Shown one piece after another: positions 2,003 to 26,228 of a DNA stretch of 64,000 nt; positions within the stretch are counted from its first letter, which is position 1; every line of letters begins with the position of its first letter. Under the pieces are notes generated by a model. It saw only the letters and a program-made list of their open reading frames with translations. It had not been told where the DNA came from and made no database searches. Source of the DNA: Escherichia phage UE-S1; the sequence record ON568341.1. The stretch is one strand, 5' to 3'. A program made the translations under genes and the position numbers.

Positions 2003-5000
2003 TTAAGAACCAATATTTATATTGCTTTTAGCTAATGAGTTAACTATTTGAACATTTTCTACTGATGCCGTACTCAAAAATATTTGGTCCGAACGTGATG
2101 GAATTTCAAATAGTGACCCAAATTTTGAATTTGGATTTTGTGCAACAATAACAATTGTACTAATATGTCTCCCCAATTGGGAATGTATATAAGTACACAA
2201 ATCAGTGTAATAGAAACTTTCACCAAAATCCCAATTATCAACATTAAAATATTCATTTGTTAATGCAATAACATTTTGACGAATTTCATCGTCACTCATA
2301 GTACTATTTGGTAATTTAACAACTTTAAAATCAGCTTTATAGTCTTCAGCAGCACTATTGCCAAACAATGGTAGGTACTCTGCACTATGCCAAATAATAC
2401 TGTCACTGATGACAATTTTTTGCTCAACATCTTTGAACATATTTTTCAATTCAACTGATGTAGGTGGTTTTGGGATACTTCCAACTGCATTATTTTTCAA
2501 CCACACATCAACTTCGGTTTTATACGAGTTAGTTAGAACATACATATCAATTAAGTTTGTTCTACTTGGATCAATGCGATTATCGTCAGGTGCATAATGT
2601 TTCCAATGGAAGTCAATACTTGTACGAGCATTTGTTTTGACTGTGTATTGTGCAGTAACATCTTTATAACCATAGTAATCCAACTTCTGATTCTCATCAG
2701 AATTAGTACCCATGTTGTTAATTGTACGATAAAATGCGAGTTCTGGTGTAACAGTTATGGTGTCATCTGAATATGTCAAATTACTAATTAATTGACCCAA
2801 ACGATCATTGTTGTTACCAACGGTTTGTTCGATGAAATAATATTTACCATCATATTTAAAACACACTAAGAATCCAGAACCTTTACTGTACAATCCACTC
2901 AATGAGTTAGAACGAATTGCATTATTTCGTACAAATTCAGTTCTTTTATATGTATTAGGTTCAGCTAATGCTTGTTCCATCGTATAAGACCAAGATGAAT
3001 CTAGAAACGTGAATGTATCATTTGGTAAAGATAGAACTGAAATAGTAAAATCATTATTTTCTTTGAATATCAAAATACCACCATATTTCAATGCATCAGT
3101 ACCTGACCATTCTGGAACAATTTCTTTAAATTGGTTTGGTTCCAATGGTATACCATTACTATCTACTTTTCTAGATGTGACAATAATACGAGAGCCATCA
3201 AGATATCCATTTTCTTGCTGTATTGTATCATAAATTTGAAAATCAATATTACTCGTCAGTCCAGAATTGTTAGTACTGGTGGTGTTCGAAGATAAAATTT
3301 CAATCTTATCGCTTTGAACAGTGCCAGTACTAATATCAGTTATTTTTTTGGATGAAACAAAGTAAAATTTCACTTTATCCCCACCAACGAATATATATTC
3401 AATACCATTAGCGTCAAATTCCCAAGTTTCTGCTGTATATTTTACATTTATAACAACCAAAACTTCATGACCATTATACATAATAGTATCATCATTCGTA
3501 CTTACTTCTACCGGAACCCATGCAGTTGTTTCTTTGTCATGCACAATGACAAAATCAGTTTTCTTATCCAACATTGCAGAAATAGATTGAACTTCAACGG
3601 AATCAAACCTAGTTCTATATGGTAATATATAATCAATTGCTTGCATTCTACTTGGTACGGATGTACTTAATACATAAAACCCATTATCTAATACACTAAC
3701 AATACTTGCCCATACTGTAGTGGTAGAGTTAGAAAATTTAATCAAAGTACCCACCTGATACGAGCCATATACAGTCCCAGATGAACCCAAAATTCTACCA
3801 TATGTATTTGTAGTATAATTTGAATTATATACAGGCGTCCATGATTGTTGGATTTCAATGCCAATCGTATTGGAAGGGTAAGCTTGATAGCGTTGTATTA
3901 CCGCATTTTCACCAATCAATGGTTGAATATTATCAATAACAATGCTGGCATTAGTTTTTGTTGTTGGTAGTAATAGTGACCTATTAAATTTAGTATTTTC
4001 TTGATATAATGCCCCGTCATCACTAAACACATCAGTGTTTTGGTATTTTCCAGTAGGATCATTGATGTCAATAAATCTAGACTGACCACTATAAATTCTA
4101 TTAATAGCTTTCGACTTAAGCACTGTATTCCCTAAACTAAGGGGTGCTATATTATAATCTTCACCATTAACAAAGCGGTTTTGTGTATAGTACATTTGTG
4201 GTGCACGTGCTTTAATCTGCTCAATTGTCTCAGCACTTTGTGCACGATCTGATTCATATTGTAATGAAAAACGTACATCCAACGTACTAGATTCATAACT
4301 TGATTGTGTTTTAGTTCGATATGTATACTTTACACTTTTATTTTGAATTTCTGATGTTTTAATGTTATACGTTTTACCATTACTGACGCGATACCACACG
4401 CGAAAAGTTCCACGCGGCACAACACCACTTCTAGAATCTGGATATTTAATTGTTATTTGGTCTTTGTCACGTGTTGAAACAGCAAAAATTGTTTTTAATT
4501 GACGGTTAACCGTATTATATGCAATACTTTCCATAGATGGTACTTTTGTCCATTTCGCACGCACAATACCATCTTCATTAATTTCTTGAACCCAAACATC
4601 AGTTTCGTTTATATTATCAACGTTTACATCTTGTATTCTATTTTCTTCACGAATATTATATTGATAATCTTGATATGTCAACGTCCCTTGTATAAAATAT
4701 ACAAAAAAACCAGTATTTGGTGAACTGAATCCATTACCATCATTTTGATAGACAATATATTTTTGTTCTTGCGGTTCTGGGTGACGTTCCTCAACACCAA
4801 CGGATGTAATGTCAGGGTTTACCACTTCAAATGTCATAGATTCACCATTTACTGTTGCAACAAATGGTATACTTGGTGCAGTCATTGGAATTGTATTCAT
4901 CCTATACAATTGTCGAGATACACCATTAACATCAATACGTTTAACTGGGTTACCAAATTGATTAGTACTAACAAATGAGCTATTCATAACAAGAATGAAG

Positions 5001-5464
5001 TTTTCATACCAATTTGCATCCATCGGGTCATTCCAACGAATAATTTTATCTTTTAGCGATTCATTGAAACTATTACGAACATCTTGGTTAGTTTTAATTT
5101 CAGTTAATTTAGCAACTGCACGACCAGGATAAGAACGGCGTGGTGCATAAGAAATCATTTTAGCTAGTTTTAGAACTGATGCACGACGTGTTGCAGTATC
5201 TAAAAAGTTTTCACGTGTGTTTAAATCCATACGAAATGCCAAGTTCTGTCCTAGCATAGAAATTGTATCCAGAATAAAAATGAATTGGTCATTTTCAATC
5301 CAGTCATTGAATGAATCAGGATACGTTTGACGCAAATAATCAATCATACTCTGGCGAATAGTATCAAAATCATATGCAGTAAGATTGATTTTATAAAAAC
5401 TTTCATAAACTTGAGTCCAATCTTCACCACTATATAAATTTGATTGCCTTTTTTGTTGTGACAT
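2003..5464 (-). CDS. Baseplate wedge protein, gp6-like (1153 aa)
   Basis: Long ORF directly downstream of gp25-like gene, as in the conserved gp25/W - gp6/J - gp7/I myovirus baseplate order; RBS AAAGGAA before ATG; ATAAATA late-promoter-like box on minus strand at about 5511-5517. Assignment by size and synteny, not by motif. Confidence 0.45.
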   Translation of the reverse strand: MSQQKRQSNLYSGEDWTQVYESFYKINLTAYDFDTIRQSMIDYLRQTYPDSFNDWIENDQFIFILDTISMLGQNLAFRMDLNTRENFLDTATRRASVLKLAKMISYAPRRSYPGRAVAKLTEIKTNQDVRNSFNESLKDKIIRWNDPMDANWYENFILVMNSSFVSTNQFGNPVKRIDVNGVSRQLYRMNTIPMTAPSIPFVATVNGESMTFEVVNPDITSVGVEERHPEPQEQKYIVYQNDGNGFSSPNTGFFVYFIQGTLTYQDYQYNIREENRIQDVNVDNINETDVWVQEINEDGIVRAKWTKVPSMESIAYNTVNRQLKTIFAVSTRDKDQITIKYPDSRSGVVPRGTFRVWYRVSNGKTYNIKTSEIQNKSVKYTYRTKTQSSYESSTLDVRFSLQYESDRAQSAETIEQIKARAPQMYYTQNRFVNGEDYNIAPLSLGNTVLKSKAINRIYSGQSRFIDINDPTGKYQNTDVFSDDGALYQENTKFNRSLLLPTTKTNASIVIDNIQPLIGENAVIQRYQAYPSNTIGIEIQQSWTPVYNSNYTTNTYGRILGSSGTVYGSYQVGTLIKFSNSTTTVWASIVSVLDNGFYVLSTSVPSRMQAIDYILPYRTRFDSVEVQSISAMLDKKTDFVIVHDKETTAWVPVEVSTNDDTIMYNGHEVLVVINVKYTAETWEFDANGIEYIFVGGDKVKFYFVSSKKITDISTGTVQSDKIEILSSNTTSTNNSGLTSNIDFQIYDTIQQENGYLDGSRIIVTSRKVDSNGIPLEPNQFKEIVPEWSGTDALKYGGILIFKENNDFTISVLSLPNDTFTFLDSSWSYTMEQALAEPNTYKRTEFVRNNAIRSNSLSGLYSKGSGFLVCFKYDGKYYFIEQTVGNNNDRLGQLISNLTYSDDTITVTPELAFYRTINNMGTNSDENQKLDYYGYKDVTAQYTVKTNARTSIDFHWKHYAPDDNRIDPSRTNLIDMYVLTNSYKTEVDVWLKNNAVGSIPKPPTSVELKNMFKDVEQKIVISDSIIWHSAEYLPLFGNSAAEDYKADFKVVKLPNSTMSDDEIRQNVIALTNEYFNVDNWDFGESFYYTDLCTYIHSQLGRHISTIVIVAQNPNSKFGSLFEIPSRSDQIFLSTASVENVQIVNSLAKSNINIGS

Positions 5465-5520
5465 AATTTATTCCTTTAAATCAGTAAAGTACTAGTTCAG
5501 TACTGGGAATTATATAGAAA

Positions 5521-6463: not shown

Positions 6464-6499
6464 AAAGACATCCTCATTTTATTTATAGTACTGAAATAT

Positions 6500-12483: not shown

Positions 12484-12517
12484 CTTTTGATTCTCCATCA
12501 TAAGGGAACATTTGATG

Positions 12518-12525
12518 TATTTATA
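12518..12525 (-). promoter_or_regulatory. Late promoter (TATAAATA) for the minus-strand baseplate operon
   Basis: Exact TATAAATA on minus strand about 34 nt upstream of ATG 12483. Confidence 0.5.
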
Positions 12526-12527
12526 CG

Positions 12528-12556
12528 TGGGACAAAACACTTTTTGGTGCTATAAT
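12528..12556 (+). promoter_or_regulatory. Sigma70-like promoter with phage-specific upstream box (GTGGGACAA-N14-TGCTATAAT)
   Basis: Member of a recurrent motif family (see findings); about 57 nt upstream of gp55-like start. Confidence 0.5.
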
Positions 12557-12613
12557 AACATTGATGGTATAAGGATTGTATCTATTGGATTTAAACATGG
12601 AGAGTTGAATATA

Positions 12614-13453
12614 ATGACAAATAGACCAAAGCGTAAAAAGTATCTCAATAATGCTGATTTACTTCGTGAAATACAAAAAAGTAAGATTTCATATTGCTGG
12701 TTATTAGACAAATCATATAGTATGTATGATTATATCGTTTTTCATGAGTCAGAAATTACTGCTGAGTTACTTGAAAAAGCAAAAGCAGCACGAATTAAAC
12801 GACTTAACAATGAAATGCTTGATAGTATTCGTGCAAAGGAAAATATGAGTGCTAAAAAAGCGAAAGAATATGCAGAAGAAAATAATCTAGTTATTACTGA
12901 TGTTCCAATTGATGAAGTAGTTATTCGTGTTATTACAGATGAACACATCCCACCAGATACTAGAGTTAATTTTGAACCTTTCAAACATTATATCGTAGAT
13001 AATGAAGGTATTCTTTATGAAGTATGTCGCTCTCATTGGAAAGGTGACCTTGAATCTGGGGAATTTAGTACTGTTCATGGTAAAATAACAAATGAACTAG
13101 GGAAAATGTTCATTAAACTAGCAGAGGAAATCTCACATAAATCTAACTATAGAAACTATACATACTTAGATGAAATGATGGGTGATGCAAGAATACAATT
13201 AGTTAAAAATGCACTTCTCTTTAAAGAGAGTATTCTTTATAAAAAAGACAAACCCGCTGTACAACTAAATCCTTTCTCTTACTATACATCATTCGTAAAC
13301 AATAGTTTTCGTTCAATTTTGAATAGTGAGAAAAATGTTCGAAATATACGTGATGATTTACTTGAAATGCATGGCTTTACACCATCACATACACGTCAAA
13401 TTGAAATTGAATTGAACATGATTGAAAGGAAAAATGAAGATGGCACTGTTTGA
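12614..13453 (+). CDS. Late-transcription sigma factor, gp55-like (280 aa) with about 110-aa internal insertion
   Basis: N-terminus (RPKRKKYLNNADLLREI) and core/C-terminal segments (GKITNELGKMFIKLAEEISHKSNYRNYTYLDEMMGDARIQLVKN; NPFSYYTSFVNNSFRSIL) resemble T4 gp55 as recalled; RBS GGAGAG; adjacent to gp47/gp46 as in T4. Start taken at ATG 12614 rather than ORF-track 12512. Confidence 0.7.
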   Translation: MTNRPKRKKYLNNADLLREIQKSKISYCWLLDKSYSMYDYIVFHESEITAELLEKAKAARIKRLNNEMLDSIRAKENMSAKKAKEYAEENNLVITDVPIDEVVIRVITDEHIPPDTRVNFEPFKHYIVDNEGILYEVCRSHWKGDLESGEFSTVHGKITNELGKMFIKLAEEISHKSNYRNYTYLDEMMGDARIQLVKNALLFKESILYKKDKPAVQLNPFSYYTSFVNNSFRSILNSEKNVRNIRDDLLEMHGFTPSHTRQIEIELNMIERKNEDGTV

Positions 13454-14471
13454 TAAAGCAATTACATTCACTGATATCCATTTAGGTTTAAAGAATAACA
13501 GCAAGCAGCACAATGAAGATTGTTTAAACTTCATTAAATTTATGATTGATGTAGCTAAAAAAAATAATATTAAATTTTGTGTTTTTATGGGTGATTATTT
13601 TCACAATAGAAGTAATATAAATATCCAAACACTAAACTATGGTTTACAAATACTTCAATTACTAAATGATAATTTTGAAAAAGTTTATTTTCTAGTTGGG
13701 AACCATGATATGTATCACAAAAACAAACGTGATATAACAAGTATCAACATGGCCCAAGTTTATGAAAATATAGAATTCATAAACGAAATTACAACGATTG
13801 ATGATTGTACTTTTATTCCTTTCATGATTGAAGATGAATATAAGTTGTTACCACAACTAAAAAGTAAGTATGTTTTTGGACACCTAGAATTACCAGGTTA
13901 CTTACTTAACAAAATGGTCGAAATGCCCGACCATGGTAAAGAAACAGAGGGTTCTTTTGGTGGTTGTGAGTATGTTTTTAGTGGGCATTTTCATAAGAGA
14001 CAATCAAAAACAACATCAAAGGGAACTCGTGTAGTTTATACTGGTAATTGTTTCCCACATAATTTTTCCGATACATGGGATGATGCAAGAGGTGTGATGA
14101 TTTTAGAACATGGAAAAGAACCAATTTTCAATTCTTGGACAGAAGCACCAAAATATAGAACATTTACACTTTCAGAACTTTTGACTGACCCAAGTTATTA
14201 TCTTCAAGAGAATACAATTTCAAAGGTTCAAGTTGATATTGCGATAACTACAGATGAAATTAGTTTTATTCGTGATACTTTCACTAAACTTTATAACATA
14301 CGTGAATTTAACGTAGTTACTAGTAAACAAAGTATATCAGAATTGATTGAAGATGGTAAAAGCTTTGAAAGTACTGAGTCAGTTGATGAGATTGTTTTAC
14401 AACAAATTATGGAAATTGATTCACCAATGTTCGATAAAAATCTTCTAATCCAAATTTACAGATCGCTATAA
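13440..14471 (+). CDS. Recombination nuclease subunit gp47 (Mre11/SbcD-like phosphoesterase)
   Basis: Calcineurin-like phosphoesterase motifs FTDIHLG, GDYFHN, GNHD, GHLE, SGHFH; RBS AAAGGA; overlaps gp55-like stop. Confidence 0.9.
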   Translation: MALFDKAITFTDIHLGLKNNSKQHNEDCLNFIKFMIDVAKKNNIKFCVFMGDYFHNRSNINIQTLNYGLQILQLLNDNFEKVYFLVGNHDMYHKNKRDITSINMAQVYENIEFINEITTIDDCTFIPFMIEDEYKLLPQLKSKYVFGHLELPGYLLNKMVEMPDHGKETEGSFGGCEYVFSGHFHKRQSKTTSKGTRVVYTGNCFPHNFSDTWDDARGVMILEHGKEPIFNSWTEAPKYRTFTLSELLTDPSYYLQENTISKVQVDIAITTDEISFIRDTFTKLYNIREFNVVTSKQSISELIEDGKSFESTESVDEIVLQQIMEIDSPMFDKNLLIQIYRSL

Positions 14472-14479
14472 GGGAATAT

Positions 14480-16627
14480 ATGCTAAACATTACACGTATA
14501 TCAATGAGGAACTTCTTTTCATTTGGGAACGCACCACAATCAATAGAATTGAATAGTTCTGATATTTCATTAGTTCTTGGGCAAAATAATGATGCAGTTA
14601 TTGAAGGTGGTGATAGCACTGGACGACGAAATGGAGTAGGGAAAAGTGCTATTATTCAAGGATTAGTTTTTGGCTTATTTGGGAAAAGTATTGGTAATGA
14701 TATTAAAATTCCCAACCTAGTCAACAAAACTAATGGCAAAAATTGTGAAGTAGTTATAGAGTTTGAAAAAGATGGTGTGCAATATATAGTTGAGCGTGGG
14801 AGAAGTCCTACGTATTTCAATTTTATCACATTAGGAAAAGATAATAAGATTGAAGATGAATCGAGAGGTGAAAAAAAAGACACACAAGAAGATTTGAATG
14901 AAATTCTTGGAATATCTCAATTATTATTTGAACATATTGTAGTTCTTAATGCGAACGTAGAACCGTTTTTGGCTTTATCATCTCAAAAACAACGTGATAT
15001 GATAGAAGAACTTCTTGGAATAACACAGTTGACTGAAAAAGCTGAAATTCTAAAGGAGATGTACAAGGATACTAAACGTTTAGCCGAACAAGAAAAGTTC
15101 AAAAATGAAACTGTGGCTGCAAGCAATGAACGCATTCAAAAAAGTATTGAAGTACTTCAAGAACAGGCTAACCAATTTGAGATTGATAAAAGTAATAGAG
15201 TATCTAAGCTAAATGAAGAGTTGAATATATATAAAACTTTAGATTTCAATGATCTCTACCAAGCTGCTGAAGAGAAAGAGAAAGCTCTTATTCATAACGC
15301 AAAGCGTGGTGAAATTGAACGCCGTGTACAAGAGTTGGCTTTAAAATATGATGCTTATGAACGTGAACTTGAAACGTCCAAGCGAGTGTTAAATCTAAGC
15401 ATTGATAATTTAAAAACGATTGATATTAGTTCGGAATTGGAAAATCACAAGGAGTTGGAAATATGGAAACAGTTAGAGGCTATTCTTAAAGAGAATAATA
15501 ATCAAAAACGTTTCAAAGAACAAAAGCTCAACTCACTAAAAGTTGCGTTGAATGGATATAAATGTTCAATTAATACTGAAATCGATAAATTATCAACAGT
15601 TGAAAGCAGTAAATGTCCACTTTGTATGTCTGATTTGGAACATAACGAACATACATCTTCAATTAAAGACAAAATTCAAAGTTCTATTAGTGATCTTCAA
15701 ACCAAAATTGATAGTTCTTCTTCAGAAATTGAAACATTACTTAAAGAAATTGAGAGTATTGAGATTTTTGATATGCCACCTAAACCAGTGACATACTATA
15801 ATACACTTTCAGAAGCACAAATGCATGAACATAAGCTTCAAGAACTGATTAAAAAGAGCGAAGAAGAACCAATAAACATCTATGCTAACGAACTTATGTC
15901 ATCATATGATGAACTTAACTCATATGAACTAATGGAAGTACCAGATACATTAAACAAGTACGAAGTTAAAGAGCTAGAAATGACCGTAAGCTCGTTATCA
16001 CAGCAATTAGAACGTGAATTGAAGACTACTAACACTTTTATTAGCCAAATTAACACCCTTAAGACAGATTCTTTAGTTACAATAGACTATAGTGACTATA
16101 ATAATCTTGATAAAATGTCAAATCACCAAGATTTTTTGGTTAAATTACTATTGAACAAGGATTCTTATGTCCGTAAGCGTATTATTGAGCAAAATATCTC
16201 ATATTTGAATACACGACTTCAGTATTATATCGATATGTGCGGTTCTGAGCACAATGTTGTCTTTTTGAATGATTTGAGTGTTGAAATTGAGAAAAGTGGG
16301 CAGTACTTTGACTATAAACAGCTTAGTAGGGGTGAGCGTACAAGGGTAAACATCGCATTATCTTGTGCTTTCCGTGATACATATGAGTCATTATACCAAA
16401 GTATTAATATTCTTATCATTGATGAGATGATTGACCAAGGTCTTGACTCAAGTGGTGTTCTACGTGTGTGGTCTATCTTCCAAGATATGGCTGCTGTACG
16501 TGGTAAGAATGTTTATGCTATTTCCCACAGAGAAGAGTTACTTTCTAAGACTGAAAAAATCCTCAAAGTTGTTAAAGAGGACGGATTCAGTACTGTTGAA
16601 TATGCAACTCTTGATGATGTTTTCTAA
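14480..16627 (+). CDS. Recombination nuclease ATPase gp46 (Rad50/SbcC-like)
   Basis: Walker A GRRNGVGKS, long coiled-coil, CxxC zinc-hook (CPLCMSD), Walker B/D-loop LIIDEMIDQGLD. Confidence 0.9.
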   Translation: MLNITRISMRNFFSFGNAPQSIELNSSDISLVLGQNNDAVIEGGDSTGRRNGVGKSAIIQGLVFGLFGKSIGNDIKIPNLVNKTNGKNCEVVIEFEKDGVQYIVERGRSPTYFNFITLGKDNKIEDESRGEKKDTQEDLNEILGISQLLFEHIVVLNANVEPFLALSSQKQRDMIEELLGITQLTEKAEILKEMYKDTKRLAEQEKFKNETVAASNERIQKSIEVLQEQANQFEIDKSNRVSKLNEELNIYKTLDFNDLYQAAEEKEKALIHNAKRGEIERRVQELALKYDAYERELETSKRVLNLSIDNLKTIDISSELENHKELEIWKQLEAILKENNNQKRFKEQKLNSLKVALNGYKCSINTEIDKLSTVESSKCPLCMSDLEHNEHTSSIKDKIQSSISDLQTKIDSSSSEIETLLKEIESIEIFDMPPKPVTYYNTLSEAQMHEHKLQELIKKSEEEPINIYANELMSSYDELNSYELMEVPDTLNKYEVKELEMTVSSLSQQLERELKTTNTFISQINTLKTDSLVTIDYSDYNNLDKMSNHQDFLVKLLLNKDSYVRKRIIEQNISYLNTRLQYYIDMCGSEHNVVFLNDLSVEIEKSGQYFDYKQLSRGERTRVNIALSCAFRDTYESLYQSINILIIDEMIDQGLDSSGVLRVWSIFQDMAAVRGKNVYAISHREELLSKTEKILKVVKEDGFSTVEYATLDDVF

Positions 16628-17138: not shown

Positions 17139-17227
17139 AATTCCTCACCAAACTATTTGTCATCACAATATTTATAGATTAGTTATTTGCAATATTTTAA
17201 GTACTTAATGAATATTTTATAAAAATA

Positions 17228-19127: not shown

Positions 19128-19135
19128 TATAAATA
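19128..19135 (+). promoter_or_regulatory. Late promoter TATAAATA (context ATAAATATTTC)
   Basis: Exact TATAAATA 33 nt upstream of ATG 19168. Confidence 0.55.
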
Positions 19136-25011: not shown

Positions 25012-25019
25012 TATAAATA
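25012..25019 (+). promoter_or_regulatory. Late promoter TATAAATA upstream of scaffold gene
   Basis: Exact TATAAATA followed by hairpin and RBS AAAGGAGAG. Confidence 0.5.
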
Positions 25020-26220: not shown

Positions 26221-26228
26221 TATAAATA
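26221..26228 (+). promoter_or_regulatory. Late promoter TATAAATA for the major capsid gene
   Basis: Exact TATAAATA 46 nt upstream of ATG 26274; RBS AAGGAG. Confidence 0.6.

Follow-up and report, generated by a model that had tools for sequence, protein, structure and literature searches.

A gp55-like late sigma factor of a jumbo phage with a predicted extra domain between helices H1 and H2

The gene at positions 12614–13453 on the plus strand of a 64,000 nucleotide (nt) stretch of Escherichia phage UE-S1 (sequence record ON568341.1; the whole stretch is referred to as the window) is very likely the late sigma factor of a 121Q/RaK2-like jumbo phage, of the gp55 type and with an extra domain in the loop between helices H1 and H2. 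The gp55 protein of phage T4 is the textbook minimal sigma factor, made up of a region 2 domain only; it works efficiently only with the sliding clamp gp45 and a co-activator, gp33, and late transcription is thereby coupled to replication. In the window protein an alpha/beta domain of 132 amino acids (aa 25–156, nt 12686–13081) stands in place of the 13 aa H1–H2 loop (TELANNKDPNKVV) of T4 gp55 (PDB 7D7C/7D7D; Shi et al. 2021, PMC7892883), a net gain of ~119 aa. The overall difference in length (279 versus 185 aa) is smaller than the insert because a tail of ~35 aa found in T4 gp55 is missing and the H3–H4 loop is 9 aa longer (13 aa, against 4 aa in T4). The initial annotation of this DNA had located the open reading frame correctly (ATG 12614 to TGA 13451–13453, 279 aa) and had proposed an internal insertion with essentially the right boundaries; the insertion stands, and its size, then put at about 110 aa, is corrected to the figures above.

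12614..13453, plus strand: coding sequence of the probable gp55-type late sigma factor, 279 aa and a stop codon
12635..12685, plus strand: H1-equivalent helix, aa 8–24 (KKYLNNADLLREIQKSK); AlphaFold2 helix 13–25, supported by model constructs and shuffle tests
12686..13081, plus strand: inserted alpha/beta domain, aa 25–156; AlphaFold2, MAFFT gap and conservation in 142 sequences
12758..12883, plus strand: helical hairpin within the insert, aa 49–90, its most variable part
13082..13369, plus strand: equivalents of gp55 H2–H4 (sigma region 2 homology), aa 157–252; residue alignment to T4 gp55
13370..13438, plus strand: H4–H5 loop (conserved G-x-x-P-S-x-T-R) and H5, aa 253–275; AlphaFold2 helices 220–252 and 259–275

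Identity as a gp55-type sigma factor

The protein matches phrog_12791 ('sigma factor for late transcription', 286 positions) at E=8e-154, with aa 3–277 aligned to profile positions 2–284, and the T4 gp55 family, phrog_234, at E=8e-18. A classical gp55 hidden Markov model (HMM) scores it at 52–58 bits, and when a profile of 40 family members is aligned (hhalign) to one of 32 classical gp55 sequences, the probability is 98 % (E=2.6e-13). The AlphaFold2 model, built from the 40-sequence alignment, has a mean predicted local distance difference test score (pLDDT) of 87.9 and a predicted template modelling score of 0.78, and shows both the sigma region 2-like helical fold (H1–H4) and the H4–H5 helix-loop-helix motif. 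Homologues from 121Q (gp591), RaK2, CBB (CBB_244) and the PA5oct group, all in PHROG 12791, are 40–98 % identical over their full length and share family and architecture with the window protein, with nothing substantive different. BLASTP against T4 gp55 gives only E=2e-4, with H1 in the wrong register; a phmmer search of PDB sequences is empty and does not connect T4 gp55, and Foldseek finds no match for the model in the PDB.

The PHROG matches, the profile–profile alignment and the predicted fold agree, and the similarity to gp55 is therefore not spurious. The late sigma identity given in the initial annotation is borne out by the sequence and the predicted fold as well as by the order of the genes and the late-promoter motifs. 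The gene itself is known and is correctly annotated as a late sigma factor in public genomes; for the inserted domain and the missing tail no description was found in the searchable literature, in which the gene is named only as 'gp55-like'.

In T4 gp55, residues E70, D74 and E77 contact the β′ clamp helices, while N13, L54, R57, F86, H95, Y97 and T99 form the pockets for the −10-like element, N13 lining that for the −9 adenine of the late promoter; R114 contacts the template-strand backbone, and the H4–H5 helix-loop-helix guides the template strand (PMC7892883). The alignment keeps two of the acidic clamp-helix residues, E187 at T4 E70 and D191 at T4 D74. Within the pockets, N13, F203, Y223 and T225 are identical to T4 N13, F86, Y97 and T99; I173 and K176 are conservative changes at L54 and R57, and K240 corresponds to R114. 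Counted over the eight positions for recognition of the late promoter motif (TATAAATA) or with a basic residue, four are identical to T4, three conservative and one changed. Conservation of N13, F203, F221, Y223, T225 and K240 across 142 family sequences is 76–97 %, and the long H4 and H5 of the helix-loop-helix are also predicted by AlphaFold2. Judged from this alignment, the protein very probably works as gp55 does, binding the host core via the clamp helices and recognizing a single-stranded −10-like element. Such a sigma factor, made of region 2 only, would redirect the core RNA polymerase of the host to late promoters of the TATAAATA type.

The extra residues are internal

HMM constructs, AlphaFold2 and MAFFT all place the extra residues inside the sigma region 2 fold, after its N-terminal helix and ahead of its remaining elements. 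Multiple alignment with short gp55 proteins by MAFFT gives one large gap at the insert and sets the N-termini of the short proteins on aa 1–20. Scored with the classical gp55 HMM, a construct of aa 1–24 joined to aa 144–end averages 57.8 bits across the family, against 45.2 bits for aa 118–end and 43.1 bits for aa 144–end alone; the mean contribution is 14.8 bits from the N-terminal segment and 2.1 bits from the internal segment 118–143. The N-terminal construct is the higher in 39 of 40 family sequences, the sole exception being a sequence without its N-terminus. With its real aa 1–24 as H1 the window protein reaches 58.1 bits, whereas 300 shuffles score 40.0±0.9 and none of them (0/300) attains the real value. 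Additionally, the invariant classical gp55 residues Y10, N13 and K24 correspond to Y10, N13 and K24 of the window protein at identical spacing, and these are 87–97 % conserved across 142 family members.

Several alignments nevertheless start further in, and would suit a protein whose gp55-homologous part begins at about aa 124, with aa 1–123 an added N-terminal domain whose first helix only resembles H1. BLASTP pairs T4 aa 7–134 contiguously with aa 124–248 (E=2e-4), phrog_234 pairs aa 125–262 with profile positions 8–135, tblastn matches to cyanophage gp55 begin at aa 124, and hhalign reaches back to aa 132. In the window protein taken singly, the internal segment also gains 9 bits, more than any of 300 shuffles. 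However, this gain shrinks to the 2.1 bits given above when taken family-wide, AlphaFold2 predicts a beta-hairpin at aa 123–139 (pLDDT >90) whereas T4 H1 is helical, and N130, the alternative partner of T4 N13, is variable where the N-terminal residues are not. Together with the MAFFT placement and the preference of 39 of 40 sequences, these results make an N-terminal addition highly improbable.

The N-terminal helix at aa 8–20 (LNNADLLREIQKS) resembles the beta-hairpin region at aa 128–140 (VDNEGILYEVCRS), and this likeness leads BLAST and HMM tools to pair T4 H1 with the wrong one of the two. Their profile similarity is marginal (10.1, against 6.9±1.9 for shuffles, 11 of 200 of which reach the real score). 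An internal duplication of H1 was accordingly not adopted; the internal look-alike is treated as coincidental, or at most as a weak remnant of an old duplication at the edges of the insert. The usual local alignments, from BLAST, PHROG or CDD, thus set the N-terminus in the wrong register, and the insert then resembles an N-terminal extension.

An internal insertion is also delimited by comparison with the late sigma factor of Xanthomonas phage XacN1 (BBA65451, 197 aa), the closest of the short forms aligned (31 % identity over aligned columns). The XacN1 protein shares the NYINNADLL N-terminus and the TEELG start of H2 with the window protein; it has no insert, and its H1 passes almost directly into H2. 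The insertion in the window protein is therefore bracketed between aa 17–24 and aa 154–157.

A mis-called start does not account for the additional residues, given the ribosome-binding site, the start used in 121Q and the conserved N-terminus.

12599..12604, plus strand: ribosome-binding site GGAGAG, 9 nt 5′ of ATG 12614, by direct sequence reading

A longer reading from TTG 12512 exists and is used by some gene callers (homologue P0001, 312 aa), but homologue N-termini all align with ATG 12614 and not with TTG 12512. The annotated start of 121Q gp591, which is 98 % identical and annotated 'sigma factor for late transcription', is the same, and 40 homologues share ~77 % identity in the N-terminus (KRKKYLNNADLLREI); the start is thus not mis-called.

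Structure, conservation and distribution of the insert

AlphaFold2 predicts the insert as an alpha/beta domain with a pLDDT of 85–96 per 10-residue block, comprising strands at aa 28–29 and 40–42, a helical hairpin (50–76/80–89) and strands at aa 104–107, 123–128 and 134–139. Mean pairwise identity is 56 % in the beta part, compared with 60 % in the sigma core and 34 % in the helical hairpin, which is shortened or absent in homologues of 230–245 aa (e.g. P0284, P0338, P0375 and P0386). Insert lengths in the family have a median of 140 aa and extremes of 75 and 240 aa. The best-conserved residues are C28, D39, R105, H111, P113, F120, F123, H125, S140, H141, W142, G149 and G156, at 88–99 % in 142 sequences, with several positions at 96–99 %. 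C28, H111, H125, H141 and H155 are jointly kept in 79 of the 142, the usual substitutions being C to S and H125 to Q, and this combination may be a metal site.

12695–12697, 12944–12946, 12986–12988, 13034–13036 and 13076–13078, plus strand: possible metal-site residues C28, H111, H125, H141 and H155, respectively, from joint conservation

When a profile restricted to the insert was run against 1.84 billion representative proteins clustered at 50 % identity, 411 insert-bearing clusters reached E≤1e-3, 262 of them E≤1e-10. Among the 150 matches listed, from which positions were taken, the insert lies at the N-terminal end, mostly at about aa 20–170, and most proteins are 230–330 aa long. The sigma core follows the insert in 11 homologues read directly and in 33 intein-bearing ones mapped with the family HMM, and no other protein context was seen among these. 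Against PDB sequences and Pfam the insert profile gives chance-level matches only (e.g. the TFIIS N-terminal domain, E=0.14), and neither the whole protein nor any of 20 insert sequences has a Pfam match. The search of BFVD returned one near-identical 134 aa fragment and one full-length structural relative, from Myoviridae sp. ctWb16 (TM 0.71); the other significant matches are short gp55-type sigma factors, and a non-sigma protein sharing the insert was not found there. With a beta part nearly as conserved as the core and no other protein context met, the insert is, judged from sequence, functional and family-specific. That it is conserved nearly as the core and only in this sigma family also makes a regulatory or interaction domain, as first suggested, plausible.

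Relation to inteins

The insert was initially noted to have no intein hallmarks, and this is confirmed by the absence of a HINT match in Pfam and by an hhalign probability of 0.1–0.2 % against real inteins. A degenerate, domesticated mini-intein of HINT fold, which has lost splicing and is now a fixed domain, would match the insert in size (~130 aa is typical of a mini-intein) and, by eye, in motifs loosely like intein blocks: C28, T108-x-x-H111, and H155-G156 near the C-terminal junction. The sigma family is also intein-prone, 33 of its 147 representative clusters being at least 400 aa long. Against this origin, the hhalign comparison covered alignments of 30 and 7 homologue inteins, and the HINT/intein families of Pfam match none of the 20 insert sequences. 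AlphaFold2 places a long helical hairpin where the HINT fold has strands, and in short family members the Cys and the TxxH motif are separated by only ~30 aa. The junctions, K24/I25 and G156/K157, are without Cys1 or the His-Asn plus nucleophile arrangement, and the genuine inteins of homologues occupy other sites. A degenerate intein is rejected on the hhalign, Pfam, junction-residue and secondary-structure evidence, and its probability is judged to be vanishingly small.

The core is interrupted in nearly all of the long clusters mentioned above (about a fifth of the total), and canonical inteins were delimited within the sigma core of metagenomic homologues at two sites, given here by their equivalents in the window protein.

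Between nt 13159 and 13160 (Y182/T183 equivalents), plus strand: intein site 1, in the H2–H3 loop; 30 proteins; ...NWRGY / C...TGN / (S/T)Y.DEM
Between nt 13303 and 13304 (N230/S231 equivalents), plus strand: intein site 2, in H4; 7 proteins; ...KN / CL.G...HS.N / CF.R

Intein-bearing homologues include P0250, P0256, P0271, P0334, P0341, P0347, P0350, P0352 and P0364. The inteins range from ~140 aa (mini-inteins) to 472 aa, the longest presumably carrying homing-endonuclease domains; the window protein is without an intein. To our knowledge, inteins in phage sigma factors have not been reported.

The missing C-terminal tail

T4 gp55 has a flexible C-terminal tail with a sliding-clamp-binding motif (...SLDFLYEAND), which is absent in the window protein. 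Sequence, model and alignment agree that the latter ends ...MIERKNEDGTV, 4 aa after H5, and in the alignment the tail is missing throughout the 121Q/RaK2 branch, whose members end ...GTV or ...GSI. T4 gp55 without its C-terminal region retains polymerase binding and basal transcription (PMC7892883); thus the loss of the tail bears on clamp dependence and not on sigma identity.

Distant insert-bearing homologues (P0093–P0113, e.g. Vibrio phage 2.275.O and marine contigs) have acidic linkers followed by IFDF, MFDW, MVDI, LFPF or ILTY. As these distant members have both the insert and clamp-like ends, the insert predates tail loss and is not simply a replacement for the clamp tether.

Among 20 neighbouring hypothetical proteins of the 121Q replication module, to which the scan was confined, neither gp45 nor gp33 is annotated or detectable with PHROG HMMs, which may miss divergent homologues; a gp44-like clamp loader is present in the module. 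Likewise, neither gp45 nor gp33 was found in phage CBB (PMC5259590).

Late promoter motifs

TATAAATA occurs 11 times in the window against 10.96 expected, an overall count not above chance. Their placement is nevertheless telling: intergenic DNA makes up 9.5 % of the window and holds 6 of the 11 sites. Five of these precede genes on their own strand by 17–48 nt, well within 80 nt, and the genes encode baseplate, head and other virion proteins and endonuclease VII. A seventh site, the first in the list below, would precede the structural-protein gene that diverges from the sigma gene.

12518..12525, minus strand: TATAAATA late promoter motif, 34 nt upstream of the divergent structural-protein gene, if this starts at 12484 (the equivalent of the annotated 121Q start)
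6480–6487, minus strand: TATAAATA motif upstream of the virion/endonuclease VII gene set
17169–17176, minus strand: TATAAATA motif upstream of the same set
19128–19135, plus strand: TATAAATA motif upstream of the same set
25012–25019, plus strand: TATAAATA motif upstream of the same set
26221–26228, plus strand: TATAAATA motif upstream of the same set

The minus-strand motif at 12518–12525 is a likely target of the window sigma factor. The shorter motif ATAAATA has 12 such upstream sites in the window; ATAAATA is the late motif reported for the Rak2-like phage CBB (PMC5259590).

Genomic neighbourhood

The 3 kb stretch around the sigma gene has 92 % DNA identity to Escherichia phages 121Q and PBECO4, and the window phage is a jumbo phage near these two (genus Asteriusvirus, RaK2-like group). 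The gene order in the window, sigma, gp47-like and gp46-like, matches the T4 order 55 ... 47 ... 46, which in T4 lies on one strand.

12529..12556, plus strand: sigma70-type promoter-like site with extended −10 (GGGACA, 16 nt spacer, TG-c-TATAAT), a consensus match only
13440..14471, plus strand: gp47-like (SbcD/Mre11-type) nuclease gene, from the list of open reading frames and the 121Q annotation
14480–16627, plus strand: gp46-like gene, 3′ of the gp47-like gene, from the same sources

The promoter-like site, found by consensus scan, has 10 of 12 consensus matches plus the TG and is located 58 nt upstream of the sigma gene start. It occupies the space between the two divergent genes, back to back with the late motif that precedes the adjacent structural-protein gene. 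T4 gene 55 is expressed pre-late by the host holoenzyme, and the sigma70-like match in the window would fit the same pattern. At the other end, the gp47-like gene has its ATG (13440) within the sigma gene, and the resulting 14 nt overlap (13440–13453) suggests translational coupling of both genes.

A separate difference from 121Q is found between the genes for the gp6-like baseplate wedge protein and the gp25-like protein. In 121Q a 765 nt free-standing HNH endonuclease gene (gene 584, 121Q coordinates 4742–5508, with the record remark 'associated with group I intron') lies between them. In the window (5479–5507) the HNH gene is absent and 28 nt separate the two genes; a homing endonuclease is thus cleanly present in one phage and absent from the other.

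Proposed role of the insert

Sigma factors commonly carry lineage-specific insertions. The non-conserved region of Escherichia coli sigma70 is likewise a lineage-specific domain, located between the first helix and the helix equivalent to region 2.1, and the H1–H2 junction of the window protein is probably equivalent to the sigma70 region 1.2/2.1 junction at which it lies. The E. coli non-conserved region is net acidic, as is the window insert; no sequence or fold homology between the two was found (no Pfam match; Foldseek against the PDB empty).

By this account the insert would have been spliced in at the H1–H2 junction, a tolerated and outward-facing site. Because the junction is permissive and probably equivalent to the site of the sigma70 non-conserved region, the insert is tentatively proposed, by analogy, to be an accessory module that could contact the clamp surface or upstream DNA, or could offer a docking platform for regulators. 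Such contacts would stabilize the holoenzyme or the open complex, this sigma factor being without a −35-binding domain and, in the 121Q/RaK2 branch, without the clamp tether. A bolder version, considered rather doubtful, is that the insert, possibly as a metal-binding module, lets the sigma factor hold on additionally to the clamp of RNA polymerase or to DNA lying upstream of the −10-like element, in which case late transcription in 121Q/RaK2-type jumbo phages would be independent of the sliding clamp and gp33.

Several points count against a gp55-like sigma factor whose insert serves in these ways. Within the core, the third clamp-helix acid, T4 E77, is I194 in the window protein, with Q195 adjoining, and the pocket residue T4 H95 is changed to F221. 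The search for a solved structure or experiment on the long-form family found none (PDB sequence search empty). The equivalence of H1 with region 1.2 rests on aligned lengths and not on residue-level superposition. The insert has a net charge of −9 in the window protein (family mean −3.4), which disfavours a mainly DNA-binding role; a DNA-binding role is, judged from this charge, unsupported. With regard to clamp independence, the FDW/FDF/VDI-type ends of the distant insert-bearing homologues resemble the clamp-binding motif of T4 gp55 and gp33. Additionally, Iyer et al. describe gp33 orthologues and PCNA-type clamps in group 2 jumbo phages (PMC7824862), so that their account and the CBB paper (PMC5259590) contradict each other on gp33 and the clamp in these phages.

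Gain or loss of the insert, and implications

The insert could have been gained once or, alternatively, the long form could be ancestral, with the block lost by deletion from T4-like, cyanophage and XacN1-type gp55. The long form is very diverse (the 411 clusters given above), its hosts extend from Enterobacteria to Pseudomonas, Xanthomonas and Vibrio, and an insertion at what is probably the equivalent junction is also found in group 1 sigma factors of cells. However, the short forms belong to separate lineages (Straboviridae, cyanophages, Stenotrophomonas, XacN1 and Delftia PhiW-14), most cellular sigma region 2 domains matching the model are without such a block, and the insert has no detectable relative outside its clade. 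An ancestral long form is thus thought improbable, and a single gain of the insert is the simpler account; the architecture is the same either way.

The insert marks out a very large clade and is relevant to how a minimal sigma factor can be activated. A large and diverse clade of jumbo-phage gp55 homologues with the insert, of which the 121Q/RaK2 branch is tail-less, constitutes a natural experiment on alternative routes to promoter affinity or regulation. If true, clamp-independent late transcription would be a second solution to the problem that T4 solves with a DNA-tracking activator.

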